A stretch of 64,000 bases of DNA from Schmidtea nova (taxonomy: Eukaryota), in assembly GCA_044892505.1 (NCBI GenBank), contig CM097882.1, positions 142,972,001-143,036,000 of the forward strand, written 5' to 3'. Of the stretch, positions 1-63,249 are shown piece by piece. Under the pieces are notes generated by a model. That model searched no databases, was not told the origin of the DNA, and saw only the letters and a list, made by a program, of their open reading frames with translations. Numbering within the stretch: position 1 is the stretch's first letter; each line of letters opens with the position of its first letter. The position numbers were made by a program, and so were the translations under genes.

Positions 1-433
1 AGAAAATTATTAAAAATAAAACAATAAAAAATATTAATCAATATTCAAATTAATTTTATATTCAAATTAATTAATTTAATATTATAAAAAATTAGAATAA
101 TTAGAATTTAAACTAGAATTGTTTTAATAAATAGTTATAAAATAAAAATTCAAATTTAAATAATGTAAATAATTTTCAAAAATTAGTAAACACTACAAAA
201 TTAATTAAAAAATAATTAATAATATAAATAATACACTTAATTATTTTAAGTTGTCATTAATATTTATTAACTTATCAATGATAAAGATTACAAATCTTAT
301 TGAATAATAAATAAAGATTATTTATTACATTACAAATCGATAAAGAAAACTAATTATTAAATAATCTAAATTAATATTTATATACAAAGGTAATTAATTA
401 TAAATAACATTCATTAAATAAATCGATACTTAC

Positions 434-602
434 AGTTACTTTCTTTTATCTTTTCATTTTTCAGTTTATTTTTTATTAAACTATCTATTGTTTCAGATGC
501 TTCAACATTGTAACCAATAAAGTTGTTCATATTGTTGTCGACATCGTTGTTGTAATCATTGATCATGGTAATATCCATATTGTTGTTGGTGTTGTTGCTC
601 AT
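434..602 (-). CDS. Probable first coding exon (Asn-rich, MSNNTNNNMDITM...) of the gene in the divergent element's left arm, possibly its PolB
   Basis: ATG at 602 lies downstream of the conserved TATA/CCAAT module; phase-1 GTAAGT donor at 433, the same phase and donor as PolB exon 3 of the main element. Confidence 0.45.
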
Positions 603-689
603 TTTATCTAAAATAAGTTGATTATTTTAAAAGTTTTAAAACAAAAATTAACTTACTAAATTTAAGTTGCAGTAAAAAGTGATTCTTAA

Positions 690-760
690 ATGAAAAACTA
701 TTGTTTATATACTAAATTCAAAATTTTTTAAATTCAAAAATTTTTAACCAATCAAATTTG
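690..760 (-). promoter_or_regulatory. TATA + CCAAT promoter module homologous to the PolB promoter
   Basis: ATGAAAAACTATTGTTTATATACTAAA vs ATGAAAAAGTATTGTTTATATATCAAA (22621); AACCAATCA at 746-754. Confidence 0.55.
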
Positions 761-1179
761 AGGAAACATACACACACGTTTGTAAATACCACAGTGTAAT
801 TTATTTCTACAATTAAATTTTTTAAAAATTATTGAACAAATAATTTATTGTTATAAATATATATCATCATTTAATGTTTAATATCAATTATTATTAAAAT
901 ACAATGTAATAAATTAAAATTAATTTTAGAGTTAAATTATACTAATAAATTATAAAAATTCTTACAAGTTAAAGTAATAAATAATTTTAAAAAATTATTT
1001 AATTATTCGAAAAAATTATAAATTAATTAATATAAAAAATTAATTAATTAAAAGTAAACTAATTATTCACAAAGTTATTATTTTTTACATAATGTATTAT
1101 TGTAGAGATTTAAAATATAAATTGTTACAGTGAAAACTTAATTAAAGTATCAATCGACAAATAAAATCAATTATTTACA

Positions 1180-1500
1180 ACAAAACCCGTGTGTAAAACG
1201 ATAACTTTTAAATTTCTAATCAAACAATTTAGTGAAAAATTTATACATATAGTAAAAACTCTAAAATATTTATTTAAATTGTTCAAAAATATCAATAAAA
1301 CATGTGTGCAACAAGAAAAATGACTAATTTTATATTTTAATTTAAGCCATTTTATAGGAAATTAAATTCTACATGTACACTGTTAATGTGAAAACCAATT
1401 AATAACAACAAAACACGTGTGCGGCGCGCAAAACACAACATTTTGAATTTTGATTTTGGCCATCTTGTAGAGAATAAAATTCTGTCTATACATTGTTACA
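1180..1500. repeat. About 3 degenerate ~114-bp units with AAAAC(A/C)(C/T)GTGTG core, related to the 144-bp array
   Basis: Cores near 1183, 1297 and 1410; shared AAGCCATTTTATAGGAAATTAAATT motif. Confidence 0.6.
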
Positions 1501-2097
1501 GCGAGAAAAACGAATAATTTCAATTTGAGGCACAAATAAAGAAAAAAGAAAAAACGGGAGAGTAGGTGATAGTGAGGACTTGGGGCCAAGCCATTTATCC
1601 CTAAACTGAATATATTACGTAATAATTATACAGTTTACCCACCCCACCCCCACCACTCCCTCAAAGGAACGTATAACTTTATGTCATTACGTAATTATTA
1701 TGCATTTATTAGACAATCATTACATGGCCATTACGTAATTATTACGCAATAGTAACGCAATTGTTATGTTACTTTATATAAAATTTAAAATTCTTACATT
1801 ATACAATAATTCTTATGCAATTGATAATGTAATACTGTAATTTATTTATTTTTATTTACTTTTTCATAAATTTTACAAAAAATATAAAATATATTAATAT
1901 TTTCAATTTTTTTTCCAAAACTTTCAAAAATGCTCAGATTTCAATCATTTTTATACCAATCTACTGAGAATTCAATGGTAAAAAATAAACAAAACAAGTT
2001 TAAAATAAAACTTTATTCAATAAAATTGATCATCGGCTTCATCAACACGCGCGGGGGCGCGCGGCGGGGGTAAACTGTTATAATTTACGGCTAATTT

Positions 2098-2418
2098 AAG
2101 GCTAAGGGTATAACATTGAAGTAAACTAAACTGAATCATCAGTCGTCTCTGGATTGTTATAATAATAATTAAATAGTTTCTGTTGATCAGTCGAGAATTG
2201 TTAGTAACAATCATCAATTATTTACTAATAAATATTCGAAAATTGCCTTGACTAATCTTGATGACAAAAGACTTTGGGTGGATAAAAATGAAAGTATTGC
2301 ATATGGACATTATAAGGGATGTGGCTCGTTTATAGACCAATCAAAAGATCAGGTTAGCGATCCAGTTTCAGATCCAGCTCTCAATTCAAATTATATATCC
2401 AATTCAGATTTGTATTGA
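2098..2418 (+). pseudogene. C-terminal fragment of a divergent protein-primed PolB (not in the ORF track)
   Basis: Manual translation KAKGITLK*TKLNHQ...NHQLFTNKYSKIALTNLDDKRLWVDKNESIAYGHYK aligns to KAKGATLKDTKIDHD...NHQLYSFKNSKIALTNNDDKRVWVGKNESCAYGHYK of 18364-22098; two in-frame stops; AATAAA overlaps the end of the stop. Confidence 0.9.
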
Positions 2419-2929
2419 ATAAAACTTTGTTAAGAAATAATTGGTTTCATTGTATTTAGTTTTATATTTATTTAGACTGTTATGTTTAATTGTTTTTAAA
2501 AATTTTATGTGTTGTCCAGATTTGAATCGGTTTTATCGTTCAGGGTTTTCATTTTTTTATGATATGTTTCAATCTTTTTATTTAATGTAAAAATAATTAT
2601 TTCTGTTTACAAATATTAATAAATTCATCTGTTCTTGTAGTTGCAGTCTGTTGAATTGACTTTTAAATTTAGACTGTTCTCGCATAAATTCCATCTGTTT
2701 TCATAGTTAGCACATTCGATTTTCTAAATTCTATTTTTACCAAAATTATATAATATATCCAAATTTATCAGTTAAAAACAATTACTCGAAATGTTAGTCA
2801 GTCGATTAAGTCATTCGATTAATGTCGATTAATATCATTCGAATAAGTAAAAACATGTTATCATGTGTGTTTCGGGTAATAATTAATGTGTTGTGTATTT
2901 TGACATTACCAACAGTAGTCACGGAAGTT

Positions 2930-3200
2930 GCACAATGTGTGTGTGTGTTTACCTTAGCAATAGATACTTCAGGAATTATATATTGACACGTGTCTTAACC
3001 TTAGAAAAAGGCTACAAGTCGACTACACTTTAATGTGTGTTTACCCTAGGAACTTCTTTCCCGGAGATTATATATTAATGTGTGTTTGTTTACCTTAGCA
3101 ACATCTTTCCTGGAGACTTTATATTAATGTGCGTGTTTACCCTAGCAACATTTTCCCCAAGATTATATATTGATGTGTGTGTTTATAGCAACCGTTGCTA
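2930..3200. repeat. Subterminal degenerate ~45-55-bp tandem repeats (GTGTGTTTACC(T/C)TAGCAA)
   Basis: About 5 copies between the PolB remnant and the 3239 terminus, the same position as the 71-bp repeats of the main element. Confidence 0.65.
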
Positions 3201-3316
3201 TATGAAAAAAGTGGTACCGAGTCCTCACTATCCCCTACTATATATATGAAAAAAAACATTTGTCGGATGACTTATTTGTTTTAAACAAGAAAAGCTATAT
3301 CTGGTAACTATACCTG

Positions 3317-15760: not shown

Positions 15761-15840
15761 GTTTGTTTCAATTTTTTTTCTAGACTTACTAATTTTATTC
15801 CTAAAAATTTGAGTATTACTTAATATTTTAATTATCATTA

Positions 15841-16429: not shown

Positions 16430-17463
16430 TATATGAAATTTCTAAATTAAATTATATATATTTTCAATAATACATGTATTTTATCTAAAGAAATTAATCA
16501 ATGATAATCATCTTCAAACTGTATCAAAATTTTGATAGAGTTTGACGATGATTATCATTAATTAATTTGCTTACATATGTATTTAGTTGTCTGATTTATT
16601 CTCATTGTTCTCTTGCAATCTTCGTGTTATTTACTATATAAATTTACAGCTGAGTTCGTGTAAATTCATGTTTATTTTTAATATATGTTTTATTTTTATT
16701 ATATACCTATTGTAAGATAATTTTAAGAGATTTATTAGGCGATTATGTAAGATTTTAATTATAAACTTCTTGTGCACGATCAGATTTTGAGGTAATCTCT
16801 TCATTTAAACAAATTAAATTTTTGATTTCACCTGCTGGGTTTATGGGTGTGTTTTAAATAATTAATAATAAATAATTAAACAAATAATAATAAATAAGTA
16901 TACTAGGGATGCCTCACCCATAACCATACATAAAAACAAATCGTCTCACTCGCGCGCCCCTAAGTATTCCCTATCTAGTTAGGTTGGAACTGCGTGCGGC
17001 GGTTGAAAAATGATGGGCAGGTGAGCTCCATCGCTGGAACTACTCCCCATTTATTTTCACGGGCCCCTGCTGCCTGCTAGGAGGTCTTACACTGGTATTC
17101 TATCGTCATCTACGCTTAACTTCAAACAAAAATCGTATTTCAACTAAAAATTTAAGTCAGCTACAATTCCTGAATTTCGAAAAACGAAATAAAGTGATAC
17201 ATCGTAAAAATTCATTTATTTATAAAAATTCTCGGAAATCTAATTTATTAAGTATAACTGTTAAAAAACCCAAAATCACCACTATGTCGTTGCATCGCTA
17301 TGTGCAAAAAATTCTTGATCGAATTCGTCTTGCGATAATTTTAATTCTGAACTTAAATCACCAGGTGAAATGTAAAATTCGTGTAAGTAGTGAGATAATG
17401 GCCCTTTGGCGCACTTAAATTCTACCCACCCCCCCCCCCACCCCCCTAGAAAATTTTTTTCTC

Positions 17464-17820
17464 TGCGTTGACGGGCCACTATGTTTTTTCTGGCAATTTT
17501 TGTATTGGAAATTTATTGTCGGTCTTTTGTACAGGTGCGTTGACGGGCCACTATGTTTTTCTGGTCATTATTGTATTGGAAATTTATTGTCGGTCTTTTG
17601 TACAGGTGCGTTAGCGGGCCATTATGTTTTTGGGTCAATCTTTGTATTGGAAAATTTTCGTCGGTCTTTTGTACAGGTGCGTTAGCGGGCCATTATGTTT
17701 TTGGGTCAATCTTTGTATTGGAAAATTTTCGTCGGTCTTTTGTACAGGTGCGTTAGCGGGCCATTATGTTTTTGGATCGATCTTTTTTATTGGAAAATTT
17801 TTGTCGGTCTTTTGTACAGG
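17464..17820. repeat. 71-bp subterminal tandem repeat, 5 units (left arm)
   Basis: Unit starts at 17464, 17536, 17607, 17678, 17749. Confidence 0.95.
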
Positions 17821-18363
17821 GATTTTGGGCTCCGAGATTTTTCTCAGGCAAAAAGGGACTGGTATTTTGTACATGGAATTTTGGTCGAGGTTTTTGTAAA
17901 GCATTTTCTACTCCCAGATCCTATCTAGGACAAAAAGAGACTCTAGTAATTATTATACAGAAATTTTCAAGAGATTTTTATGGTAAATAAAAACACGTGT
18001 AAATTTATCAAAATGTTAAATAGATTTAAATGGTTTTTATTTCTATGGTAAAATACAAAGACAAAAGAATGACATAATATTTAAAATTTAAGAAAAAAAA
18101 GGGTAAAATCAAGGCAATGTGAGAGTTGAAATGACACAATATTTAAAATTTAATAAATAAAAAGGGTAAAATCAATTTTTTGGAGAAATCAGAGTTGGTA
18201 AATTTTTAAATATAAAATTAAATTCTTTTTCACAAAATGAAATTAATTTTTCACAAAATTCTTTTTTAAACCAATAAAAGTCTTAACTAATAAAAAGAAA
18301 AATTTTTAACTAATAAAAAGAAACATTTTTAACTAAATTTTATTAAAATAAATACAAATTTTA

Positions 18364-21300
18364 TTAAAATAAATCTTCTTCATCGTCTTCTTCTGTAACT
18401 TGATTGAATTCTCTGTCATTAGTGTCTTTATAATGCCCGTATGCACAACTTTCATTTTTTCCCACCCAAACCCTTTTATCATCATTATTAGTTAGTGCAA
18501 TTTTTGAATTTTTAAAGCTATATAACTGATGATTTTTTGTACCTATTCTAAATTGTGGTACACTAATCTCTGAGTTATTTAAATAACATTTTACATATGA
18601 ATCGTGGTCTATTTTAGTATCCTTTAATGTTGCTCCCTTAGCCTTTGTAGTATTAGTTTTACCCAACAAGCTGTAACATTTTGGTCTAAGGAAAATCCAC
18701 TCATCATATCCTTCACCCTTACTTTCATCTTTGAATTTTCCAATAACAGAATCCAATTTCTTGCTGTATAGTGGGTGATCAGTTGGATAATTTGATGTAT
18801 CTAACAAGTTATCATTTTTCATTTCATTTAATAATATTTCTAATTTTAGATTTTTAATTTCTAGAAAAAACGAATCTGTATCGCCTGCTACGATATTTAT
18901 CTGACAACTATATTTGTCGCGATATTTTTGTAAATCTTTGTATTGTAATTCGTACATTCGAAGTTTTGATAAATCAAGCACCGATTGTCCAATATAACTC
19001 GGTCTATCTAAACAAATCGAATCTGGATTTAATAAAGCAGCAACTAAATTATCGTCGATTTTAATAGATTTTTTGAAAGAAGGTTTTGATGTATATTTAA
19101 CTAGTTTTTTCTCCGTTGAACATAATCTTAAATTCATTCTCCTTTTAAGATTTTCCACTGTTTTGCCATACAGACTATTATTGAGTAATTTGAAAAAGTT
19201 TTTATCTAAAGTATTAGTACTTTTCGCCCGCAATTCAGTGTTGGTGTCTATATACTTTTTGAAAATTGGAGATTGTTTAAATTTAACTGCTCTATTTATC
19301 TTTGTGACTTTAACACCAAGTCCTAAATATAATTGAAGTAATCGCCAATGAATTATATAATTATTTTTAGGGTAATGAGTCAATAGTAATTTTTCTACTT
19401 TTGAACCTCGTGGTTTCATTTTTTCTGCAGCTACCGGGAAATCATCCAAGAAATCATGAATTTCAGCAGGTATTTCCAAATCTACCTCTAAAGTGTAACC
19501 GTAAGATATAGATTCAAGATTTAGATTAATACAGTCATGCAAAATATTATCTAAATTATCAGTCACCCAACTAAATTCTCCACAAGGTAAAGGTTCACTT
19601 AAAGCCCATCCGTAAAGATTATTTATATCGATATACAATAATTCTGTATTTTCATCTGTTTTAACGAAGTGTTTATTTACAAAAGTCAAACCTCCTCGAA
19701 TTCCCCCTTCATAAAAGCTAAACATTTCATTTTCTGTTATTAATTCTATTGGTTCATCTAAAGTCATTAAAGAAGATGACCAAGACATGCCAGGAATACC
19801 GAAGTAATTCAATGGCTCTAATCTATTGTGAGCTATAGATTTGGTTCGAAATTGCTGAAAGAAATCAGCCAAAAGAAAGCAATCAAGTTTCAAGTAAGTC
19901 ATCATATAATCTAAAAGAGTAACACAGTTTGTTTCTGTCCAAATCAGTTGTGCCTTTTCATATTCTTCTTTTGAAACACCTTTCCAGATTGGTGGTAACT
20001 CATAAGTATTTTCAAGTACTTCTAAACTTGTAGCAAAGCTATACGGAAAAATCCCCTTTTCAGAAACTATAGTTCCATTAAAAACCGAATTTGTCAAAGG
20101 TAAAGATTTCAACGTTTTCACTGCCTTTGCCAAAGAATCATTCACAAACTGGTATGAGTCTAAAAATCTTAAACTAATCTTGCCAACATGAGCTATCAAT
20201 GAAATAAATTTTTCAGTTGTAATAGGTATACAACCCAATGACCAATTCTTGAACTTATTTAATCCGTGTTTAAGAATATGGTGCATATCATATCCTTTCA
20301 AGTTATGAAAAACTATTGGTAAAGACTTGTTGATTTTTCTATTAATGTTACACGTTTGACATGCTGCACCTAAATATTTCCCAGTGAAATGATCATGGTC
20401 TCTTACAGGATCTACGATATTTTTCATGCAAAGGTAACAAGTAGTACCATTTTTAAATTGATCCTCTTCAATTTCAGTCAATCTATTCATTGGTTTGTTT
20501 CCATTTTTATTGTAATATGGAAGAACTTTTAATAAAGCAATATTTTCAATCGCTTTTAAAAATTCATCTACACAATTTAGTCCAATAAATTGTTGGTAAG
20601 ATTTTGTCCCATCAAAGTTATTTATTAACAAAAGCCCCGCAGAAATAGGCAAGTGTTTCTGATAATATACATCATCCTTTGGTAAAATAGCTTCAAAGTC
20701 TGCATAAATAACAAATGGTGGGGTAACAGTTTTTGACCAATCTGAAAATTTAAGCATTTTATTTTCCGGGAAAGTGTATAATGTTGTTCCTAGTTGATTT
20801 TTTCTGCATAAAATCTCATGTTTTTCCAACGATATTTTATTTGGGAAACCATTTAAACATCTACTGCACCATTCGCTTCTTATCCTAGTAGTACAATAAA
20901 TGCTTTGGTGACAATTCATTAAACGTTTTAAATTTATAATAGGTACATAATGATATTTTTCCCCTTCATTTAATAACAATAAATTTATAGTTTTTCCTTC
21001 TATTACTTTTGACCGATGAATAATATCCAAATGAGGATGCTTTAAAATATAATCATCTTGCTCTTCATTAATTTCATTATTATAACATAGTACATTTATG
21101 ATCAATCCTGGATTCTTTGCTTCGAATTTTCTGATACTATTTAATTTCATGGGCATGTCTGATATATCATATTTGAGCTCTGACAAAAAATTTATATATT
21201 TTGATACTCTTTCTCTATCTCTAGATTTTAAATCATATTTTAATATAGCTAAAATGCTATATAAAAAACATAAATTATCCTTATTATCAATGTTTAATAT

Positions 21301-22585
21301 ACATCTCTTTCCTTTTAATCCTTGAGGAGTTTTTACAATGCTTCTACCTGCTAACCTACTTATATTGGATATCTTAGTTACAACAAAACTTATTTCAGTA
21401 ATACGATTAAGTACCCAACTGCTACCTAATTCCGAAAATGAAGTTATCTTTTCATTCAATTTTTTAATTCCCTCTTCGAAAAATTTCTGTGTCAGAGGTT
21501 TTGCACTATTGGAAATATTGTTTCTTTTAATTTCTCCATCTTTCTCAAATTCAACACAGATACCAAATTGTATCTTCACATAGCCTATTTCATTAATTAT
21601 TTCTATTAATTTATTAATTAATGATTGTGGAAAAATAATTTGCTTTATATTTAAATCACTAGTGTTAATTTTTAAAATCCTATGCGATCCATTTAAATCA
21701 CTTTCAATGACAGGGAGAGGTTCTATAACACTTCCTCCAGTTTGATAAAATCCAACGTTCCAAAAATCTTCAATCTCTTCCACCGTTTCAATTAAAATCT
21801 TGTTTTTGTCCGTTTCGTCCGCTTCCATCGCTTCTAATAAAATCTTATCTTCAATCTCTTCTTGTAAATTTTGTGATTTCTTGATTATTTCTATGTTCAA
21901 TTTAATATTTTTATTATTTATAGGGTTTTGAGTCAAGTTTGGTCTTTTAAATAATTTTATTTTCTTAGACCTATATTCATTTAAATGATCCTTATGTTCA
22001 TCGTAAAAATTTTTATATGTAAGGGGTTGGGAAGTTTGGCATACGGGACATATATAATAGCGAATTTTATAATAAGAGTGTCCATAATATTGCTCCATTG
22101 ATCGATGACAATTATCGTTGTGGTCAGTTGAAAAGCAATAATTTGGGTATAAAGCACCTATGAATGTAAATTAATGTTAAAAATAATAATAATATTATCA
22201 AATTATATATTTACAAATATTTTACTATATTTATTTACTAAATTAATTAAAATATAATTAAATTAATTAAAATTAATCAATACTTACATTGGTCATTCAA
22301 TACCACATCAGGTATAACTCCATTATTCATATTATTTTCGTCACTAATAATCTTAGTTTGTACGGTAGTTAGTTCAGTCATATTTACATCACCTAAAGTA
22401 AAAATTAAATAATATATTATGTTTAAGATTAAGTACCATTTTCTTCTGTATTTTCTAACAACGATTTCCCAATTGAATTATTGATATTACCTAAATTACT
22501 ACTAAATGATAATAAATTAAAAAATAAATTTACCGTTTTCTTTCCCACTTGGGTTTTCGTTCATAAAACTTGTTATTGTGTTCAT
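18364..22585 (-). CDS. polB: Intact protein-primed family B DNA polymerase, spliced, ~1334 aa; exons 22585-22534, 22490-22437, 22392-22288, 22157-18364
   Basis: ExoI VIYADFE, ExoII FHNLKGYD, ExoIII YLKLD; Pol motifs YIDINNLYG, KLLNNSLYGK, AGDTDS; C2H2-like CSRC..H..C; HNH/EndoVII-like CYLC..DHDH..CQTCN; three GT-AG phase-1 introns add 90 in-frame codons to the 1244-aa ORF. Confidence 0.92.
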
Positions 22586-22634
22586 TTTTAATGTTTATTA
22601 TTTGTAAAAGTGAATAATGAATGAAAAAGTATTG

Positions 22635-22734
22635 TTTATATATCAAAGTTATTACACACACATAACCTTTGACCAATAAAAATCGAGTAAGGGGTAGGAA
22701 ATTTATTCTTATCAACCAATCAGAATCGAGTAAG
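22635..22734 (-). promoter_or_regulatory. PolB promoter, left arm: two CCAAT boxes plus TATA
   Basis: GACCAATAAAAATCGAGTAAG and AACCAATCAGAATCGAGTAAG; TTTATATATC (TATA on the minus strand) ~50 bp upstream of the ATG; conserved at 63710-63810. Confidence 0.7.
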
Positions 22735-23139
22735 AGGCAGTAAAGGTATTATTATCATCAGATAGAGAATTATGACTAATTATATATTACGTTGCAGTAT
22801 TTTAAAAAAACTAGAAAAGTTATTTCAACAAATTATAATACACATCAAAGTTATAAAATATTTCAATGAATTGCATGCATGTCATATGATTAAAATATAT
22901 TAGACTAAATATTTCAGTAAATTACGTCTAAATTATATTACATTTCAATAATTACGTCAGTTATAAAAAATATTTTAATTAATTTTGATAAAATACATTA
23001 GAATTGTCAATAACACACACAAAACCTTTATAATTTTCATTAGTATATGATAGAAAATTAAATTATATCTACACATGATTACAATAAATATTCGATAAAT
23101 CTATGCTAAATAGTCGAAAAAATCCCAGTATTTTATTAC

Positions 23140-24240
23140 AAAACACGTGTGCATCACAAACATATCAATATACTTAATTTTGAATCAAGCCATTTTATAG
23201 ATATTTAAATTTTATCTATATGTAATTACAATGAAAACTCACTAAAGTTATTTTAAATAACTAAAACTTACAAAATTAATTACAAAACACGTGTGTAACA
23301 CGAAAAACGACAACTTTTAGATTTTGAATCAAGCCATTTTATAGGAAATTAAATTTTACATATACTTTATTACAATGAAAAGTCAATAAATTTATTTTAT
23401 ATACATGAAAAATGCAAAATTAATTACAAAACACGTGTGTAACACCAAAAACGACAACTTTTAGATTTTGAATCAAGCCATTTTATAGCAATTTAAATTT
23501 TATCTATACTTTATTACAATGAAAAGTCAATAAATTTATTTTATATACACGAAAAATGCAAAATTAATTACAAAACACGTGTGTATTACAAACACACTAG
23601 CAAACTAATTTTCTAATCAAGCCATTTTATAGGAAATTAAATTGTACTTATACTTTATTACAATGAAAACTCAATAAATTTATTTTATATACACGAAAAA
23701 TGCAAAATTAATTACAAAACACGTGTGTATTACAAAATACAACAACTTTCAGATTTCTAATAAAGCAATTTTGTAGACATTTAAATTTTACACATATAAT
23801 ATTACAAGGAAAACTCAATAAATTTATTTTATATACACGAAAAATATAAAATTAATTACAAAACACGTGTGCATTACAAACACACCAACAAACTAAATTT
23901 CTAATCAAGCCATTTTATAGGAAATTAAATTTTACTTATACTTTATTACAATGAAAAATACATAAAGTTACTTTATATTGTTAAAAATTTGAAAATTCAA
24001 AATAAAACACGTGTGCATCACAAAATACGACAACTTTCAGAATTCTAATAAAGCTATTTTGTAGACAATTAAATTTTATCTATACAATATTACAATGAAA
24101 ACTCAAAAAAGTTATTTTATTTAGGTGAAATATACAAATTTAATGACAAAACACGTGTGCACAACAATATACACAACATTTTGAATTTTTAATTCAGCCA
24201 TTTTGTAGACAATAAAATTCTGTCTATCTATTGTTACACT
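23140..24240. repeat. 144-bp tandem array, 8 units, each with an E-box (AAAACACGTGTG), left arm
   Basis: CACGTG at 23144, 23288, 23432, 23576, 23720, 23864, 24008, 24152 (exact 144-bp period). Confidence 0.95.
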
Positions 24241-24297
24241 TAAAACCTGATCAGGCCCAAATAAAGTGTCAAAGAACCCGTCAGAAAAAAACAGGAT

Positions 24298-25087
24298 AGT
24301 AGATAGTTATGAGAAGCATGACTCATCAAAATTACGTCATAATTACGTAACATTTCGTGAACCCCCCTCTCCCCCGTTTTTTTTTTGATGGCGTAATCGA
24401 TGACGTAATTTCAAATTCAAATTTTAAATTTAAATTTCCAAAGGTCAAATAAGGTCAAACCTTCAAACAATGGTATCATTCGAAAGGTCTTGAAGAGGTC
24501 TATCCAATGGTCATACCCTCGAAGGTCTATGGAGGGTCCTTAACCTTCAAGGGGTCAAAAACCTTTAACCTTTTACAATACTTACAAGTTATATATCAAA
24601 CAAAAGGTAATTGAGAGGTAAGTATGATGGTCATACTTTCAAAGGTGTATGGAGTGTCCTGAACCTTGAAAGGGTCAAAAACCTTCAACTTTTTTTAATT
24701 CTTATAATATGTACATCAAACAAAAGGTTTTTGAGAAGTGAGTATGGTAGTCATACCCTTGAAGGTACATGGAGGGTGCTCAACCTTTAAAGGGTCTAAT
24801 ATATATAATATGGGTATCAAACAAAAGCTAATTGAGATGTGCACACAATGGTCGTACCCTTGAAAAGTGCAAGATTCAAAAATTTTAAACCCTAGTAATA
24901 TACATATCATTCGAAAGGTATTTGAGAGATGTAAATGGTAGTTATACGCTCAAAGGTCTATAGTCAAAGGTTCCAAGGTAAAATTTTCAAAAAAAAAAAA
25001 TGTAAAGAATTTACATGGGGGGGGTCACGAAATATTATGTAATTATGACGTAATTTCGATGAGTTATGCTTCTCATAACTATCTACT
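24298..25087. mobile_element. 790-bp central core with its own AGTAG...CTACT termini and 70-bp imperfect inverted repeat
   Basis: AGTAGATAGTTATGAGAAGCAT at 24298; reverse complement ends at 25087; 5 mismatches in 70 bp; flanks are inverted (CAGGAT/ATCCTG), so no TSD. Confidence 0.75.
24474..24960. repeat. About 5 degenerate 90-120-bp direct repeats in the palindrome loop
   Basis: Units begin ATCA(TTCG/AACA)AAAGGT...TTGAGA...GGTCATACCCTTGAAGGT near 24475, 24595, 24715, 24816, 24906. Confidence 0.8.
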
Positions 25088-25144
25088 ATCCTGTTTTTTT
25101 CTGACGGGTTCTTTGACACTTTATTCGGGCCTGATCAGGTTTTA

Positions 25145-26245
25145 AGTGTAACAATAGATAGACAGAATTTTATTGTCTACAAAATGGCTGAATTAAAAAT
25201 TCAAAATGTTGTGTATATTGTTGTGCACACGTGTTTTGTCATTAAATTTGTATATTTCACCTAAATAAAATAACTTTTTTGAGTTTTCATTGTAATATTG
25301 TATAGATAAAATTTAATTGTCTACAAAATAGCTTTATTAGAATTCTGAAAGTTGTCGTATTTTGTGATGCACACGTGTTTTATTTTGAATTTTCAAATTT
25401 TTAACAATATAAAGTAACTTTATGTATTTTTCATTGTAATAAAGTATAAGTAAAATTTAATTTCCTATAAAATGGCTTGATTAGAAATTTAGTTTGTTGG
25501 TGTGTTTGTAATGCACACGTGTTTTGTAATTAATTTTATATTTTTCGTGTATATAAAATAAATTTATTGAGTTTTCCTTGTAATATTATATGTGTAAAAT
25601 TTAAATGTCTACAAAATTGCTTTATTAGAAATCTGAAAGTTGTTGTATTTTGTAATACACACGTGTTTTGTAATTAATTTTGCATTTTTCGTGTATATAA
25701 AATAAATTTATTGAGTTTTCATTGTAATAAAGTATAAGTACAATTTAATTTCCTATAAAATGGCTTGATTAGAAAATTAGTTTGCTAGTGTGTTTGTAAT
25801 ACACACGTGTTTTGTAATTAATTTTGCATTTTTCGTGTATATAAAATAAATTTATTGACTTTTCATTGTAATAAAGTATAGATAAAATTTAAATTGCTAT
25901 AAAATGGCTTGATTCAAAATCTAAAAGTTGTCGTTTTTGGTGTTACACACGTGTTTTGTAATTAATTTTGCATTTTTCATGTATATAAAATAAATTTATT
26001 GACTTTTCATTGTAATAAAGTATATGTAAAATTTAATTTCCTATAAAATGGCTTGATTCAAAATCTAAAAGTTGTCGTTTTTCGTGTTACACACGTGTTT
26101 TGTAATTAATTTTGTAAGTTTTAGTTATTTAAAATAACTTTAGTGAGTTTTCATTGTAATTACATATAGATAAAATTTAAATATCTATAAAATGGCTTGA
26201 TTCAAAATTAAGTATATTGATATGTTTGTGATGCACACGTGTTTT
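25145..26245. repeat. 144-bp E-box array, 8 units, right arm (inverted)
   Basis: Reverse complement of 23140-24240. Confidence 0.95.
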
Positions 26246-26650
26246 GTAATAAAATACTGGGATTTTTTCGACTATTTAGCATAGATTTATCGAATATTTA
26301 TTGTAATCATGTGTAGATATAATTTAATTTTCTATCATATACTAATGAAAATTATAAAGGTTTTGTGTGTGTTATTGACAATTCTAATGTATTTTATCAA
26401 AATTAATTAAAATATTTTTTATAACTGACGTAATTATTGAAATGTAATATAATTTAGACGTAATTTACTGAAATATTTAGTCTAATATATTTTAATCATA
26501 TGACATGCATGCAATTCATTGAAATATTTTATAACTTTGATGTGTATTATAATTTGTTGAAATAACTTTTCTAGTTTTTTTAAAATACTGCAACGTAATA
26601 TATAATTAGTCATAATTCTCTATCTGATGATAATAATACCTTTACTGCCT

Positions 26651-26750
26651 CTTACTCGATTCTGATTGGTTGATAAGAATAAATTTCCTACCCCTTACTC
26701 GATTTTTATTGGTCAAAGGTTATGTGTGTGTAATAACTTTGATATATAAA
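26651..26750 (+). promoter_or_regulatory. PolB promoter, right arm: two inverted CCAAT boxes plus TATATAAA
   Basis: GATTGG near 26664, TATTGG near 26707, GATATATAAA at 26741-26750, ATG at 26800. Confidence 0.7.
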
Positions 26751-26799
26751 CAATACTTTTTCATTCATTATTCACTTTTACAAATAATAAACATTAAAA

Positions 26800-29700
26800 A
26801 TGAACACAATAACAAGTTTTATGAACGAAAACCCAAGTGGGAAAGAAAACGGTAAATTTATTTTTTAATTTATTATCATTTAGTAGTAATTTAGGTAATA
26901 TCAATAATTCAATTGGGAAATCGTTGTTAGAAAATACAGAAGAAAATGGTACTTAATCTTAAACATAATATATTATTTAATTTTTACTTTAGGTGATGTA
27001 AATATGACTGAACTAACTACCGTACAAACTAAGATTATTAGTGACGAAAATAATATGAATAATGGAGTTATACCTGATGTGGTATTGAATGACCAATGTA
27101 AGTATTGATTAATTTTAATTAATTTAATTATATTTTAATTAATTTAGTAAATAAATATAGTAAAATATTTGTAAATATATAATTTGATAATATTATTATT
27201 ATTTTTAACATTAATTTACATTCATAGGTGCTTTATACCCAAATTATTGCTTTTCAACTGACCACAACGATAATTGTCATCGATCAATGGAGCAATATTA
27301 TGGACACTCTTATTATAAAATTCGCTATTATATATGTCCCGTATGCCAAACTTCCCAACCCCTTAAATATAAAAATTTTTACGATGAACATAAGGATCAT
27401 TTAAATGAATATAGGTCTAAGAAAATAAAATTATTTAAAAGACCAAACTTGACTCAAAACCCTATAAATAATAAAAAGATTAAATTGAACATAGAAATAA
27501 TCAAGAAATCACAAAATTTACAAGAAGAGATTGAAGATAAGATTTTATTAGAAGCGATGGAAGCGGACGAAACGGACAAAAACAAGATTTTACTTGAAAC
27601 GGTGGAAGAGATTGAAGATTTTTGGAACGTTGGATTTTATCAAACTGGAGGAAGTGTTATAGAACCTCTCCCTGTCATTGAAAGTGATTTAAATGGATCG
27701 CATAGGATTTTAAAAATTAACACTAGTGATTTAAATATAAAGCAAATTATTTTTCCACAATCATTAATTAATAAATTAATAGAAATAATTAATGAAATAG
27801 GCTATGTGAAGATACAATTTGGTATCTGTGTTGAATTTGAGAAAGATGGAGAAATTAAAAGAAACAATATTTCCAATAGTGCAAAACCTCTGACACAGAA
27901 ATTTTTCGAAGAGGGAATTAAAAAATTGAATGAAAAGATAACTTCATTTTCGGAATTAGGTAGCAGTTGGGTACTTAATCGTATTACTGAAATAAGTTTT
28001 GTTGTAACTAAGATATCCAATATAAGTAGGTTAGCAGGTAGAAGCATTGTAAAAACTCCTCAAGGATTAAAAGGAAAGAGATGTATATTAAACATTGATA
28101 ATAAGGATAATTTATGTTTTTTATATAGCATTTTAGCTATATTAAAATATGATTTAAAATCTAGAGATAGAGAAAGAGTATCAAAATATATAAATTTTTT
28201 GTCAGAGCTCAAATATGATATATCAGACATGCCCATGAAATTAAATAGTATCAGAAAATTCGAAGCAAAGAATCCAGGATTGATCATAAATGTACTATGT
28301 TATAATAATGAAATTAATGAAGAGCAAGATGATTATATTTTAAAGCATCCTCATTTGGATATTATTCATCGGTCAAAAGTAATAGAAGGAAAAACTATAA
28401 ATTTATTGTTATTAAATGAAGGGGAAAAATATCATTATGTACCTATTATAAATTTAAAACGTTTAATGAATTGTCACCAAAGCATTTATTGTACTACTAG
28501 GATAAGAAGCGAATGGTGCAGTAGATGTTTAAATGGTTTCCCAAATAAAATATCGTTGGAAAAACATGAGATTTTATGCAGAAAAAATCAACTAGGAACA
28601 ACATTATACACTTTCCCGGAAAATAAAATGCTTAAATTTTCAGATTGGTCAAAAACTGTTACCCCACCATTTGTTATTTATGCAGACTTTGAAGCTATTT
28701 TACCAAAGGATGATGTATATTATCAGAAACACTTGCCTATTTCTGCGGGGCTTTTGTTAATAAATAACTTTGATGGGACAAAATCTTACCAACAATTTAT
28801 TGGACTAAATTGTGTAGATGAATTTTTAAAAGCGATTGAAGATATTGCTTTATTAAAAGTTCTTCCATATTACAATAAAAATGGAAACAAACCAATGAAT
28901 AGATTGACTGAAATTGAAGAGGATCAATTTAAAAATGGTACTACTTGTTACCTTTGCATGAAAAATATCGTAGATCCTGTAAGAGACCATGATCATTTCA
29001 CTGGGAAATATTTAGGTGCAGCATGTCAAACGTGTAACATTAATAGAAAAATCAACAAGTCTTTACCAATAGTTTTTCATAACTTGAAAGGATATGATAT
29101 GCACCATATTCTTAAACACGGATTAAATAAGTTCAAGAATTGGTCATTGGGTTGTATACCTATTACAACTGAAAAATTTATTTCATTGATAGCTCATGTT
29201 GGCAAGATTAGTTTAAGATTTTTAGACTCATACCAGTTTGTGAATGATTCTTTGGCAAAGGCAGTGAAAACGTTGAAATCTTTACCTTTGACAAATTCGG
29301 TTTTTAATGGAACTATAGTTTCTGAAAAGGGGATTTTTCCGTATAGCTTTGCTACAAGTTTAGAAGTACTTGAAAATACTTATGAGTTACCACCAATCTG
29401 GAAAGGTGTTTCAAAAGAAGAATATGAAAAGGCACAACTGATTTGGACAGAAACAAACTGTGTTACTCTTTTAGATTATATGATGACTTACTTGAAACTT
29501 GATTGCTTTCTTTTGGCTGATTTCTTTCAGCAATTTCGAACCAAATCTATAGCTCACAATAGATTAGAGCCATTGAATTACTTCGGTATTCCTGGCATGT
29601 CTTGGTCATCTTCTTTAATGACTTTAGATGAACCAATAGAATTAATAACATAAAATGAAATGTTTAGCTTTTATGAAGGGGGAATTCGAGGAGGTTTGAC

Positions 29701-31021
29701 TTTTGTAAATAAACACTTCGTTAAAACAGATGAAAATACAGAATTATTGTATATCGATATAAATAATCTTTACGGATGGGCTTTAAGTGAACCTTTACCT
29801 TGTGGAGAATTTAGTTGGGTGACTGATAATTTAGATAATATTTTGCATGACTGTATTAATCTAAATCTTGAATCTATATCTTACGGTTACACTTTAGAGG
29901 TAGATTTGGAAATACCTGCTGAAATTCATGATTTCTTGGATGATTTCCCGGTAGCTGCAGAAAAAATGAAACCACGAGGTTCAAAAGTAGAAAAATTACT
30001 ATTGACTCATTACCCTAAAAATAATTATATAATTCATTGGCGATTACTTCAATTATATTTAGGACTTGGTGTTAAAGTCACAAAGATAAATAGAGCAGTT
30101 AAATTTAAACAATCTCCAATTTTCAAAAAGTATATAGACACCAACACTGAATTGCGGGCGAAAAGTACTAATACTTTAGATAAAAACTTTTTCAAATTAC
30201 TCAATAATAGTCTGTATGGCAAAACAGTGGAAAATCTTAAAAGGAGAATGAATTTAAGATTATGTTCAACGGAGAAAAAACTAGTTAAATATACATCAAA
30301 ACCTTCTTTCAAAAAATCTATTAAAATCGACGATAATTTAGTTGCTGCTTTATTAAATCCAGATTCGATTTGTTTAGATAGACCGAGTTATATTGGACAA
30401 TCGGTGCTTGATTTATCAAAACTTCGAATGTACGAATTACAATACAAAGATTTACAAAAATATCGCGACAAATATAGTTGTCAGATAAATATCGTAGCAG
30501 GCGATACAGATTCGTTTTTTCTAGAAATTAAAAATCTAAAATTAGAAATATTATTAAATGAAATGAAAAATGATAACTTGTTAGATACATCAAATTATCC
30601 AACTGATCACCCACTATACAGCAAGAAATTGGATTCTGTTATTGGAAAATTCAAAGATGAAAGTAAGGGTGAAGGATATGATGAGTGGATTTTCCTTAGA
30701 CCAAAATGTTACAGCTTGTTGGGTAAAACTAATACTACAAAGGCTAAGGGAGCAACATTAAAGGATACTAAAATAGACCACGATTCATATGTAAAATGTT
30801 ATTTAAATAACTCAGAGATTAGTGTACCACAATTTAGAATAGGTACAAAAAATCATCAGTTATATAGCTTTAAAAATTCAAAAATTGCACTAACTAATAA
30901 TGATGATAAAAGGGTTTGGGTGGGAAAAAATGAAAGTTGTGCATACGGGCATTATAAAGACACTAATGACAGAGAATTCAATCAAGTTACAGAAGAAGAC
31001 GATGAAGAAGATTTATTTTAA
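26800..31021 (+). pseudogene. polB: Right-arm pPolB with one premature stop; exons 26800-26851, 26895-26948, 26993-27097, 27228-31021
   Basis: GAA>TAA at 29651-29653 splits the ORF into 788 + 453 aa; otherwise differs from the left copy by 4 missense changes. Confidence 0.92.
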
Positions 31022-31564
31022 TAAAATTTGTATTTATTTTAATAAAATTTAGTTAAAAATGTTTCTTTTTATTAGTTAAAAATTTTTCTTTTTATTAGTT
31101 AAGACTTTTATTGGTTTAAAAAAGAATTTTGTGAAAAATTAATTTCATTTTGTGAAAAAGAATTTAATTTTATATTTAAAAATTTACCAACTCTGATTTC
31201 TCCAAAAAATTGATTTTACCCTTTTTATTTATTAAATTTTAAATATTGTGTCATTTCAACTCTCACATTGCCTTGATTTTACCCTTTTTTTTCTTAAATT
31301 TTAAATATTATGTCATTCTTTTGTCTTTGTATTTTACCATAGAAATAAAAACCATTTAAATCTATTTAACATTTTGATAAATTTACACGTGTTTTTATTT
31401 ACCATAAAAATCTCTTGAAAATTTCTGTATAATAATTACTAGAGTCTCTTTTTGTCCTAGATAGGATCTGGGAGTAGAAAATGCTTTACAAAAACCTCGA
31501 CCAAAATTCCATGTACAAAATACCAGTCCCTTTTTGCCTGAGAAAAATCTCGGAGCCCAAAATC

Positions 31565-31850
31565 CCTGTACAAAAGACCGACAAAAATTTTCCAATAAAA
31601 AAGATCGATCCAAAAACATAATGGCCCGCTAACGCACCTGTACAAAAGACCGACGAAAATTTTCCAATACAAAGATTGACCCAAAAACATAATGGCCCGC
31701 TAACGCACCTGTACAAAAGACCGACGAAAATTTTCCAATACAAAGATTGACCCAAAAACATAATGGCCCGCTAACGCACCTGTACAAAAGACCGACAATA
31801 AATTTCCAATACAATAATTGCCAGAAAAAACATAGTGGCCCGTCAACGCA
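31565..31850. repeat. 71-bp subterminal tandem repeat, 4 units (right arm)
   Basis: Reverse complement of the left array with one unit fewer. Confidence 0.95.
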
Positions 31851-33012
31851 GAGAAAAAAATTTTCTAGGGGGGTGGGGGGGGTGGGTAGAATTTAAGTGC
31901 GCCAAAGGGCCATTATCTCACTACTCGTGTAAACTTCAAAATTATCGTTAAAAAATGTGCACACCCCAAAACCTATCGCTATGTAAAACTCACAATCATT
32001 GCTATGTAATAAAAATTGTGCAACACTCAAAATACTATCACTATATGCAACAATCAAAAAACTATCGCTATTAAAAATATGTTACCAAATACTATTCACT
32101 ATGTGCAACGATCAAAATGTTTTATCAAAACTATTCACTATGTGTAACGATCAAAATGTTTAACAAAACTATTCATAATGTGAAACCTCTATTAAAACCA
32201 TTTTACATATAAGAATCTTATCTCACTCAACATTTCGTGGAGCTAAAGAGTCCCAGAAAGACGACTTGCGCCCTCGCAGCGTGAGCTACTGAGGAAGCAT
32301 ATTTATATTTATAAATGACAATTTTATATAATAAACATCATAGAATATCTATTAAATCAAATCAAATCATAGTAACCATTACAAACAAAATCCACAAAAT
32401 TTACATGATCAAAGCTGGCTGGTGAAATCTTTACCGGAATCTGTGCAAATTTTTAATTTCAAAAAAAATGTTCTCCGCGAGTTGAAATTATGAATTTCTA
32501 ATGCCTTTATATACTATTTTTGATATCGGTGTGTCCATTACTGATGCGGGGTTTCTATACAACTGTTAGCAAAGCTGTTGGTGTATGTGGCCGCTTTTCT
32601 GTCGGTTTTCTCTCATCTTACCGACCCCCAACACCAGTCGCTCGGACATTACGTGTGATATCGCATGTTGACTCTGTCGAGACTGCATGCACGTAATATC
32701 CATTTATTTTTATTTTTCTATTTTTACAACATTTTTTAACATTACTAATTAGTTTTCAACGGCCATTTAACCAAATCAAAACACGCTACCACAAATCGGG
32801 TAGTCACTTATTGTTATTGATCCGGTGATTAAATAAAATCATTTCAAATTACTGTTGCGTTGCAAATTACGACAACGCGATTTCGCAACTACACAAATAA
32901 AATTCAATCTCATTTATTTTAAAAATTAAAATTACAATTAAAAGAATAAAAACAAGGTTTTCCTATAACATACGAACCTGTATATTTATTTGTATATTAA
33001 ATTACTAATTAA

Positions 33013-46100: not shown

Positions 46101-47459
46101 GCTTGAGATAAGCTTGTTTTTACTTTTTCAAACTGTTTGGTTGTTTGCTTGGTCCAGTTAATTTTAATGTTTCTTCTTGTTTTGATCAGGTCGTTTAATG
46201 GCGCTAACAATTCACTGCAGTTAATGATGTACGCATGGTAAAAGTTTACCATTCCCAAAAATCGTCTTAACTCTCTGTTTGTGTTTGGTAGTTTGAACTC
46301 TTGTATCGTGCTTATTTTCTTGTCTATTGGCTTCGTGCCTTTTTCGTCCAGTGTGTGTCCCAGAAAATTTATTTTTTTTTCAAGAATTCGCATTTTTGAA
46401 TGTTTATTTTGAGATTTGCTGAGTCCAGCGTTTCAAACACCTTTTCAATGTCTTTTAAATGAATTGTTTTGCTTGGACTTGCTATGAGGATGTCGTCCAA
46501 ATAAGCTATAGTATTCTGGTTATTTTTCAGAGTCTTGTCCATAAATCGTTGAAATGTTGCAGCTGCGTTTCGCAAACCAAATGGCATTCTGTTGTATTCG
46601 AACATGCCGATTGGTGTTACGATTGCTGTTTTTTTAATGTCTTCGTTCCTGATGGGTATTTGGTGGTAAGCCTTCTGTAAATCTATTTTCGGGAAAAGTC
46701 TTGCACCTTTAAGTCTGTTTATTATGTCTCTGATGATAGGCAGTGGGTAGTTGTCAGTAGGGGATAGTGAGGACACGGGGCCAAGCCATTTATCCTTAAA
46801 CTGTATATATTAATTAATAATTATACAGTTCCCCCCTAAAATTTTTTTATTTTGTTTACATGAAGTGAATTTTTTAATTTTTTAATTTTGTTTAAATGAA
46901 GTCATTTTATTTATTTTTATTTATTAATTTTATTATATTTATTAATCTTAATTAATTTTAATTTAATTTACTTTTAATTTATTTTTAATTTATTTTTATT
47001 TAATTTATTTTTTGTAGAGGACTTTTGATCTGGTTATTTTGTATAGGAATTTTACTCTGGTTTTTTTGTATAGGATTTTCTATTCCGAGAATTTTCTTGT
47101 GCAAAAAGGGACTCTGGGTTTTTTGTACAGGAATTTTTTATACATCGATTTTTGGTCTCGTATTTTGAATAGAATTTTTGGTCTGATATTTTTGCACAGG
47201 AATTTTCTATTCCGAGATTTTTTTTTCGGGCAAAAAGGGACTCTGGTAATTTTGAATATGATTTTTGATCTCGTATTTCTGTATAGGATTTTTAATCTAG
47301 TATTTTTGTATAGGATTTTTAGTCTGGTTATTTTGAATAGGAATTTCTACTCCCAGATTTTTCTCGGGCAAAAAGAGACTCTGATAATTTTAATATGATT
47401 TTTGATCTTAATTTTTGTATAGGATATTTAGTCTGGTATTTTCGAAAACAATATTTTGG

Positions 47460-47995
47460 TCGGGGAAATTCCAAAAAATCAAAAATGCTCAGAATCAAAT
47501 AATTTTTATACCAATCTACTGAGAATCGGGTGGCGAATAAAAAGGGTTAAAAAGTAAAAACCTGAAAATTTGACTTATCCGACCCAATTTTTATACGTAA
47601 AAAGGGTCAACTCGGAGAAAATCAAAAAATTAAAAAGAGGTCAGAATTCAATAATTTTTTATACCAATCTACTGAGAATTGAAAGGCAAACAATAATGGT
47701 CAAAAATTAAAAAACATGAAAAATTGATCTTATCCGACCAATTTTTACACGTAAAAGGGTCGACTCGGGGAAATTCCAAAAATCAAAAATGCTCAGAATT
47801 CAAAATTTTTTTATATCAATCTACTGAGATTCGAATGGCGAACAAAAAAGGGTCAAAAATAAAAACATGAAAATTTTGACTTATCCGACCAATTTTACAT
47901 GTAAAAATGATCGACTCGGGGAAATTCCAAAAATAAAAAATGCTCAGAATCAAATAATTTTTATACCAATCTACTGAGAATCGAATGGCACATAA
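47460..47995. repeat. About 150-bp tandem repeats (~4) in the left TIR; ~3 inverted copies at 49940-50410
   Basis: ATGCTCAGAATCAAATAATTTTTATACCAATCTACTGAGAAT...GACTTATCCGACC units; one copy also at 1928-1975. Confidence 0.85.
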
Positions 47996-48839
47996 AAACG
48001 TGGAAATATTTAAAAAATATTTAAACTAAATAATTAAATTTAAATAAATTGATGATAATTAAATAAAAAAGTAAATAAATTCTATACGAATTTCAAAACT
48101 CAGTAAATAATTCACTCATTATTTTGTATTGAATTTATCGAGTAAAATGGTACATTAAATAAAAGCATGGAAATAATAAGTAAATTAAAGTTAGAATTTT
48201 AAATTAATTTGTACTGGATTTATGAAAAATGGTAAAGTAAATAAATTAAAGATAGAATTTTAAAAATAATTATGAATTTAAAGATAAATAGAATTATAAG
48301 AAAATTAAGAATAAATAAGTAAATTAAGAAAGACGTGAGTTTTATTGTAATAATTTTAAAATGAATTGGTTTTAAATGAACTTTTTAAGGTAATATTTGA
48401 AAAATGTGAGAATAATTAAATATTTTTGAAATTTTTTAAAGTAAAATTTTTTAACAATAAAGTCACTGTTTAATTTTTTAACAATAAAATCAATGTAAAA
48501 TTTTTTAATTAATAAATACAAAGTAAATATTTTTTCACAAGTAAATATTTTTCACAAGTAAAATTTTTAACTAATAAATACAAATCTAACTGTTTTTCAA
48601 TATGATGTTTTTTAAGCAAATGATCAAATAACAACAAATAAATGTAGTAAATAAAACACATGTAAATATTGAATTTATTTAGAATAAAAATAGTTATTAA
48701 ACAAGAGTTGTTACAATTTTGTATACTAAGTTAAAAAATAACGATTAATGACATAAATTTTTAAAAATAAACGTAATAATTGAAAATATGGAAACAAGTA
48801 AATAATAATAATAATAATAAGTAACGTCTATCAATCAAA

Positions 48840-49760
48840 CTAAGTACCTACAATAAACCGATCAACTAACTAATAATCTCATTACACACACACAAATCAA
48901 CCACTGACTAGTAACTGATCAAATGTCAAATGACTCTATCCACAAATCACCAACCAACTACTTACTTAACAGTTACCAACTGACTATGTATTAACCAACT
49001 AGGAAAATTGTTCCATGTGTCAATCAATTATCTCTTTCTATTAACTAAATATCAAATTATCCAATCCCTTTAGCTAACAAACAGACCAATTCCTTACTTA
49101 CTAACTAGTTCTATACATCAACCAACTACTTCTATACATTAACCAACTAGTTCTATACCAAACAACTAACTACACTAACTAACTATACATACTAACCAGT
49201 AACTAATCTCTTACTTACTAACTAGTTCTATACATCAACCAACTAACTCTTCTCATTAACCAACTTACTCTATTCACAAATCACCAATCAACTACTCTAA
49301 CTAACTAAATATACATACTACTTCTTAACATTAACCAACTACCACTATTCACAAATTACCGATCAACTACCCACTCTATACATACTAACCAGTCAGCAAT
49401 CAAATACTTACTTACCAAGTAGTTTTACACATTAACCAACTAACTAACTAAACACTCTAACTATCAACCAATTCCTTACTTCCCAACTAACTCTTCTCAT
49501 TAACCAACTAATTCTATTCATTAATCCTATACTAGCCAACCAGCCACTCACTCTACACACTATCCATCTAAGTACTTACCAACTACTTCTACACATTAAC
49601 CAACTAACTCTATTCATAAATCAACAACAGACTAGTTAATTATTAAATATCAATTGATTCTATCCACAATCTACTAGTTAAATCAACTAATTGGATACCA
49701 ACTGACTCTATATATTAAACAAATAAATCTTCACTCTAAGGAAATTGTTCCACGTATCAA
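48840..49760. repeat. Degenerate (AACT/AACC)n-like, strongly G-poor strand-biased repeat tract
   Basis: Recurring TTAACCAACTAACT and TCTATACATCAACCAACT; G almost absent on the + strand. Confidence 0.8.

Positions 49761-63188: not shown

Positions 63189-63249
<61 letters not shown>

Follow-up and report, generated by a model that had tools for sequence, protein, structure and literature searches.

A palindromic Polinton derivative in Schmidtea nova that carries polB in both arms and was probably inserted in trans

How does an element that encodes no integrase come to lie between 6-bp duplications of its target site (TSDs)? The question is posed by a stretch of 64,000 nucleotides from the planarian Schmidtea nova (assembly GCA_044892505.1, contig CM097882.1, positions 142,972,001 to 143,036,000; all coordinates below refer to this stretch, the window), which contains a palindrome of 14,540 bp, element A. 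Each arm of A carries a single gene, encoding a Polinton-type protein-primed DNA polymerase B (PolB; pPolB for the protein-primed class) with a predicted four-exon structure. Our analysis favors a scenario, probable rather than assured, in which A arose by folding back, relies on the pPolB that it encodes for replication and was inserted by the RVE integrase of a helper. The element comprises the following parts:

17380..17385, + strand: left copy of the TSD, CGTGTA
17386..31925: element A, the whole palindrome, 14,540 bp, with AGTAGT...ACTACT ends
17386..24367: left arm, 6,982 bp
17464..17820: subterminal array of 71-bp units, 5 copies in the left arm and 4 in the right arm
17821..18010: subterminal repeats of the 27-bp type, common to elements B and C
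18364..22157, - strand: exon 4 of the left polB, an open frame with polymerase motifs A, B and C intact
22158..22585, - strand: predicted polB exons 1-3 (22585-22534, 22490-22437, 22392-22288), the GT-AG introns being 43, 44 and 130 nt long
22586..23049, - strand: putative promoter, with a TATA-like sequence, two CCAAT-bearing 43-bp repeats and TTACGT motifs
23050..24246: array of 144-bp units, ~8 copies, one CACGTG per unit
24298..25087: nested AGTAG...CTACT mini-element, 790 bp, with 70-bp terminal inverted repeats (TIRs) that are 93% identical and a 650-bp spacer with 120-bp repeats
25018..31925: right arm, 6,908 bp, the left arm inverted
27228..31021, + strand: exon 4 of the right-arm polB, with a premature stop at codon 813 of the open reading frame (ORF)
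31926..31931, + strand: right copy of the TSD, CGTGTA

Two inverted arms of ~6.9 kb and the 650-bp spacer make up A, the TIRs amounting to 95% of its length; the initial annotation, which placed the feature at 17386-24367, had the arm boundaries right but covered only the left arm of the palindrome. The mirror symmetry ends exactly at the termini, beyond which the flanks are unrelated apart from the direct 6-bp TSD. Both the (AGT)2 ends and the length of the TSD are those of Polintons. Among the 1,030 AGTAG/CTACT pairs in the window, matching 6-bp flanks, for which the chance is ~5e-4 per pair, occur in only two, namely, A (CGTGTA) and element B (GTTGTC), both of which are also among the 8 pairs with ends matching at 20 or more of 25 nt. 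The earlier statement that two family members carry such TSDs is therefore correct in number, but B has neither polB nor any other gene, and its terminus differs from that of A beyond AGTAG.

The arm is accounted for without gaps and, as had been asserted, leaves no room for a second gene: from the outside inwards, it consists of the 78-bp terminus, the 71-bp array, the 27-bp-type repeats, a 353-bp AT-rich 3′ region, polB exon 4 (3,794 bp), the three small exons with their introns (428 bp), the promoter (464 bp), the 144-bp array (1,197 bp), a 51-bp junction and the 70-bp inner terminus. DNA that is neither repeat nor polB amounts to 868 bp per arm, mostly with 17-22% GC. Judging by its sequence, the 144-bp array might be enhancer-like; its CACGTG sites and the TTACGT motifs are what we take to be candidate host transcription-factor sites, and the TTACGT motifs are ~13-fold above the window average in the promoter (22586-23049) and the inner terminus (24298-25087).

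Measured against autonomous Polintons, A lacks the RVE integrase, the packaging ATPase, the protease and the major and minor capsid genes, and its TIRs (6.9-7.0 kb) fall outside the range of 100-1,500 bp given for Polintons (bioRxiv 2023.08.22.554363). It does combine Polinton ends and a TSD with the absence of a core mobility gene, as non-autonomous Polintons do. That these genes are missing had been noted initially, and the profile and similarity searches bear this out. None of the 76 stop-free frames of at least 25 amino acids (aa) in the arm and spacer matched integrase, ATPase, protease or capsid families of Pfam (E<=0.1), the longest such frame outside polB, of 94 aa, lying within the 71-bp repeats; likewise, none of 50 frames from the core of B, piece D and an insertion in element C (see below) matched any Polinton family in Pfam. 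Profile hidden Markov models (HMMs) of 13 Polinton integrases and 8 A32 ATPases retrieved nothing inside 17386-31925 at E<=10. When 512 ORFs from 41 PolB-related loci were compared with the window by tblastn, 272 matches fell in polB copies; the only others, 9 in number, corresponded to a Gypsy integrase. A cryptic spliced integrase can be rejected for the arm, given that Pfam searches of 53 window ORFs and 126 short frames, the HMMs and tblastn matched no integrases other than those of Gypsy elements. Gypsy aside, no integrase, ATPase, protease or capsid gene was detected in A or the rest of the 64-kb window, no profile dedicated to proteases or pentons having been built, and the window holds no RVE-encoding partner Polinton with compatible ends.

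Since A and B each have a 6-bp TSD and neither has an integrase, integration in trans is the reading that they jointly support. To this extent, the logic of the initial annotation holds, and non-autonomous as well as polB-less mobile Polintons provide precedents, although no helper is seen in the window. Its further suggestion of a segmented, bidnavirus-like system found no positive evidence: the other AGTAG pieces of the 64-kb window (B, C, D/E and the mini-element) carry no different gene.

The gene that A does retain is open in the left arm, where the motifs of the exonuclease, of EndoVII and of the polymerase (A, B and C) are all intact within a stop-to-stop frame of 1,268 aa. Exon 4 encodes a terminal-protein-like region (ORF aa ~161-267, with the invariant Ser250) and a vOTU domain (Cys301, His407), and an EndoVII insert occupies aa 578-608 within the exonuclease; HNH inserts have been described in pPolBs (bioRxiv 2023.08.22.554363). 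From the predicted start, an ATG at 22585, an in-frame chain leads through three introns to the large exon. Compared with the polB copy in element C, indels are multiples of three in the predicted exons (3, 6 and 3 nt) but not in the introns (1, 17 and 2 nt); five alternative in-frame exon chains fit as well. In Pfam, the left PolB matches Endonuclease_7 only (E 4e-4, below the cut-off); among the closest homologues, 5 of the 6 scanned match PF03175 (DNA_pol_B_2), and 2,953 of 7,999 candidates are homologous to the PolB of A.

A structural model of PolB residues 160-480 (predicted local distance difference test, pLDDT, 90.8; alignment of 87 sequences) predicts a first domain of four strands and two helices, with the invariant Ser beside a Gly in the loop between helix 2 and the last strand, and a next domain with an OTU fold and invariant Cys and His (Z 7.4, root-mean-square deviation 3.9, 105 residues aligned). 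The best viral structural match of this N-terminal model is Drosophila-associated adintovirus 2 (E 1.5e-18), with bidna-like polymerases at ranks 3-5. Among solved structures, the first domain has no terminal-protein match; the best are little-finger domains of the Y family (Z 8.4), so that the terminal-protein call is made by topology. As modeled, the N-terminus matches the layout of terminal-protein and vOTU domains in Polinton pPolBs (PMC11161782).

The arms as a whole are 99.8% identical, being distinguished by 11 substitutions, an indel of 3 nt and a single unit of the 71-bp array; each arm has changes of its own. Within polB, there are 5 differences, all amino-acid-changing, at which copy C agrees with the left arm at 3 and with the right arm at 2, indicating that both arms drifted after one duplication; this pattern is as would be expected from neutral drift following a single duplication event.

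How the arms came to face each other is suggested by the centre of A. The mini-element with termini of its own, which the initial annotation had missed, points to a fold-back origin. Its inner TIR has 5 mismatches in 70 positions versus 6 in the 6,838 positions of the rest of the arms (Fisher p=4e-8), and so looks older than the arms. The flanks of the mini-element are inverted, not direct; the mini-element has a C-tract like that of the outer ends of A, and its DNA folds end to end (z=-14, 20 shuffles). A copy-back origin would leave a short inverted repeat that is older than the complementary arms on either side of it, and this is the pattern displayed by A. On the simplest reading of these sequences, the older inner repeat would have served as the fold-back primer, and the arms would have been copied recently from the mini-element.

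We propose that A is a non-autonomous Polinton/Maverick derivative in which the replication module was retained, whereas those for integration and for the virion disappeared. The precursor would be a molecule spanning the polB-side terminus to the nested AGTAG mini-element, the 70-bp repeats of which could pair on a displaced single strand; extension of the 3′ end back across the array, promoter, polB and terminus would then yield a palindrome with two matching ends. Given its intact domains, the PolB of A would use its fused terminal-protein domain to prime at the AGTAG ends, the vOTU would cleave this domain off, and copying would proceed by strand displacement. Insertion would be effected by the RVE integrase of a complete Polinton in the same genome, which would recognize the ends and generate the 6-bp TSD, and the same help would be needed for the gene-less element B. 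More speculatively, the doubling to 14.5 kb, near the size of a complete planarian Polinton, might favor packaging in helper capsids. Polinton replication and integration have so far been largely inferred from sequence. An element with only ends, promoter, array and polymerase would define the minimal needs in cis and in trans, and the fold-back scar would provide indirect evidence for the single-stranded, panhandle-forming intermediate predicted by the self-synthesis model.

The other AGTAG-bounded sequences, which together with A cover 45% of the window, bear on this scenario:

1..1560, - strand: piece E, with a polB-like 5′ exon, matching last intron, promoter motif, 144-bp-type units and 60-nt junction
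1561..3239, + strand: piece D, which begins at the junction with an AGTAG terminus of the B type, has its CTACT end at 3239 and lacks a TSD of its own
46756..51187: element B, 4,432 bp, gene-less, with TIRs of ~1.26 kb, TSD GTTGTC and a gap of 187 N
57172..64000: element C, with the order of parts of A and a polB that is 96% identical and frameshifted; it contains a gap of 520 N and an insertion in intron 3

The TIRs of B are identical at 845 of 883 aligned bases. The element interrupts the pol frame of a Gypsy element, which stays open and keeps its phase to the left and right of B; this Gypsy (protease, reverse transcriptase, RNase H, integrase) extends over 44385-46809 and 51176-52280, split by B. 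Piece E is ~67-85% identical to the inner half of the A arm, and its left end lies beyond the window edge. Piece D holds a dead 3′ fragment of polB (2098-2361) with two stops, oriented toward the CTACT end at 3239. An AGTAG terminus follows the array after 60 nt in E/D and after 59 nt in A, and the chance of finding the pentamer at the same offset within 2 nt is ~0.004; the junction sequences themselves are weakly similar (shuffle p=0.08). D as a simple insertion into E is rejected, given the lack of a TSD, and we regard it as suggestive only that E and D represent a deleted version of the A layout in another subfamily.

Element C leaves the window within the promoter, before the junction, so that its visible part excludes the centre. 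Its polB differences from A are spread evenly over the codon positions (36/37/39), with 26 synonymous and 71 non-synonymous changes and four indels, as befits a decaying copy. Identity to A is 78-84% at 57172-57600 and 63227-63916 and 95-96% in polB and the 3′ region, which suggests that C either is a mosaic of modules or was joined during scaffolding across the 520-N gap. The insertion in intron 3 of polB (62235-63249, + strand) contains a hydrophobic ORF of 241 aa, with AATAAA and a tail of (AAT)20 downstream of it; the only match of the ORF is a Schmidtea mediterranea protein named GCR127 (68% identity, two 20-aa gaps), and the insertion resembles a retrocopy or else a repeat that was annotated in error. 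We rejected this ORF as the cargo of a second segment, its position in intron 3, the poly(AAT) tail and the sole match to GCR127 marking it as an insertion into a dead copy.

Beyond the window, a GTDB scan yielded the 41 related loci mentioned above, with 25-42% identity; presumably, these are contigs of eukaryotes or viruses that ended up in metagenome-assembled genomes. Of these, 25 were examined, with 149 of the 155 listed ORFs scanned (four near-duplicates and two others were omitted): rve was found in 13, the A32 ATPase in 7 and a double jelly-roll domain in 1, indicating that the wider PolB family lives in canonical Polintons. The phylogeny of the family was reconstructed with FastTree, midpoint-rooted, from 80 core sequences, comprising the GTDB and window proteins and a thinned set of the listed homologues. 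An Atlas search that started from homologue P0002, not from the window protein, returned eukaryotic PolB/EndoVII clusters. Contigs of the close homologues, mostly 4-7 kb, were considered as evidence of a polB-only layout and set aside as uninformative, being no shorter than those of distant homologues. Long inverted repeats that overlap rve frames reach the locus edge just downstream of polB in two of the related loci, L024 (1546-3406 / 9449-11327, with the overlap in both arms) and L032 (9906-11397 / 17426-18925), and possibly represent another giant gene-bearing TIR layout. In L015, a 4.7-kb tandem duplication (11970-21474, 99.6%) covers part of polB and the integrase.

Several observations weigh against a recent fold-back product inserted by a helper. 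No parent or helper with the ends of A was seen in the 64-kb window. The integrase-bearing loci are distant (27-37% in the PolB core), and the 8 of them that could be placed fall outside the clade of the A PolB in the 80-sequence tree; the closest listed homologues, with up to 62% identity, come without genomic context. The terminal-protein domain is assigned by its topology and a single residue, in an arrangement of the little-finger type that is common; an elevated mutation rate near the loop could likewise raise the number of inner-repeat mismatches; and rearrangement after insertion would equally leave a TSD. Furthermore, an internal AGTAG end at the same offset in E/D, a ~70% identical relative, is more than one recent accident can explain. 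The palindrome could even be the native form of an old, self-replicating family of polB-only Polinton satellites in planarians, in which a conserved nested terminus permits switching between a ~7.7-kb monomer and a self-complementary dimer of ~14.5 kb, the spliced polB is under selection, and the integrase, and perhaps capsids, come from helpers or a polB-less partner. We entertain this possibility only tentatively; if it is true, the Polinton life cycle is split between elements.

The shared position of the nested terminus in A and the diverged E/D also fits a composite or bipartite arrangement, a modified form of what the initial annotation proposed. Here, the polB arms would serve as a permanent module for replication, and the integrase and virion genes would be carried, in other copies, by the nested module or by a separate AGTAG segment, the 790-bp centre of A and element B being emptied versions. 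In its favor, 75 nt at the inner end of D are 90% identical to the ends of B, an element that moved on its own and has a TSD; the polB fragment of D shows a third-position excess of differences from A (30/64, p=0.017); and multi-segment PolB viruses with shared ITRs are known, as in Vesanto virus (PMC8363768). Nevertheless, B, the visible part of C, D/E and the inner element have no gene besides polB, and the ends are heterogeneous beyond AGTAG (outer end of A versus B, p=0.05; versus the left end of D, p=0.28), unlike those of matched segments. In addition, integration with TSDs is not known from bidnaviruses, and we consider the composite system unlikely. Rearrangement after insertion would have a complete Polinton insert itself, after which a break folded back at the mini-element and was rejoined to the far TIR, the inverted left part replacing the other genes while the TSD stayed intact. 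The resulting anatomy and distribution of mismatches would be identical, priming by foldback at chromosome breaks has reportedly been documented in yeast, and the spacer of A is unique in the window. However, a second precise repair step would be required, the junction shared with E/D and the gene-less B are left unexplained, and none of the four polB-bearing pieces (A, C, D, E) is accompanied by a trace of another Polinton gene in the 64 kb, which makes this course of events improbable. Inversions are a known artefact of whole-genome amplification, and the five N gaps in the window and the near-identity of the arms might suggest a fold-back chimera or two joined copies; yet A itself is gap-free, its mirror symmetry stops exactly at the termini between unrelated flanks with a direct TSD, and each arm has its own changes among the substitutions and indels listed above, so that an artefact is very unlikely. 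Hardly credible, finally, is self-insertion by a cryptic spliced integrase or by the EndoVII nuclease within PolB. Small hidden exons are conceivable because host introns are very short (43-44 nt, as predicted), and the EndoVII motif is intact; but the little non-repeat, non-polB DNA of each arm is AT-rich and gave no HMM signal, and EndoVII as a substitute integrase is rejected, given that the same motif (strict pattern) stands beside real integrases in 4 of the 13 integrase-bearing loci and thus does not replace the integrase there.

The fold-back derivative with a helper integrase can be compared with several known systems. In copy-back or snap-back defective viral genomes, and in panhandle repair of adenoviruses, a genome end is copied back to give long complementary arms, and the products depend on a helper; unlike these, A is integrated in the germline and keeps an intact replicase. 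Polintons/Mavericks (Polintoviricetes, including adintoviruses) share with A the (AGT)2 ends, the 6-bp TSD, the 14.5-kb length and a pPolB in which a terminal-protein-like domain and a vOTU are combined with an inserted nuclease (PMC8097293, PMC11161782, bioRxiv 2023.08.22.554363). Besides the missing integrase, ATPase, protease and capsid, A differs from them in its ~7-kb TIRs, compared with 46-1,447 bp in vertebrate Mavericks, for which TIRs starting with (AGT)2 or (AG)3 and 6-bp TSDs are described (PMC8097293), and in having polB inside both TIRs and with predicted spliceosomal introns, intact ORFs of vertebrate Mavericks being intronless. Complete Polintons of Schmidtea, of 14,867 and 15,944 bp, have capsid, penton, ATPase and protease genes according to Table S1 of PMC4028283, which also includes 'N' Polintons of 11-15 kb and nine elements without the whole virion module. 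Non-autonomous Polintons (Polinton-1N1_DR, 15,469 bp; Polinton-2N1_DR, 11,092 bp; Polinton-N1_NV) resemble A in being large and missing core genes, those of zebrafish lacking all four virion-module genes in that table, which has no column for polB or integrase. By contrast, A keeps polB alone, twice, around a nested terminus-bearing centre.

Duplication of core genes within TIRs is shared with the polintons of the butterflies Pieris and Euchloe; there, however, TIRs of ~2 kb hold hexon and adenain genes in otherwise full elements (bioRxiv 2025.02.07.637071), whereas polB lies in the TIRs of A, which constitute nearly the entire element. According to the same preprint, butterfly polintons without polB have stayed mobile. 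Bidnaviruses and Drosophila Vesanto virus (PMC8363768, PMC8502044) have a related N-terminal pPolB architecture and ITR-bounded units, but consist of 3-6-kb segments with different cargo and shared ends; A, by comparison, is a palindrome integrated with a TSD, and the window shows no second cargo. There is nothing unusual in an integrase-less element that has a TSD, and insertion with the aid of a helper is familiar biology. What is new is that TIRs of ~7 kb bear polB and that a nested terminus is present, one that apparently recurs; we found no description of a polB-only palindromic Polinton in the literature, Repbase and most subscription journals being outside the search, nor did we meet with the layout in PMC6431247, PMC3014272, PMC11131425, PMC10680173 or bioRxiv 2024.01.15.575659. 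Planarian Polintons are targets of piRNAs (PMC8532177), and Mavericks are reported to have expanded in the genomes of Dugesia (bioRxiv 10.64898/2025.12.11.693146). Should expansions of this kind be driven by polB-only palindromes, they would escape any survey that demands five core genes.

The remainder of the window contains other repeats and genes. Two 97%-identical copies of one stretch (34910-36393 and 53903-55365) hold an intronless, highly diverged UBE2K-like gene with E2 and UBA domains, at most 48% identical to named animal proteins. Relics of Gypsy, MULE and hAT-like elements, the hAT label having been assigned by eye, lie at 6900-8900, 10678-11157, 33550-34546, 38416-39171 and 55578-56990, and a duplicated stretch at 13975-15227 and 41769-43005 (96% identical) is probably the relic of a DNA transposon.

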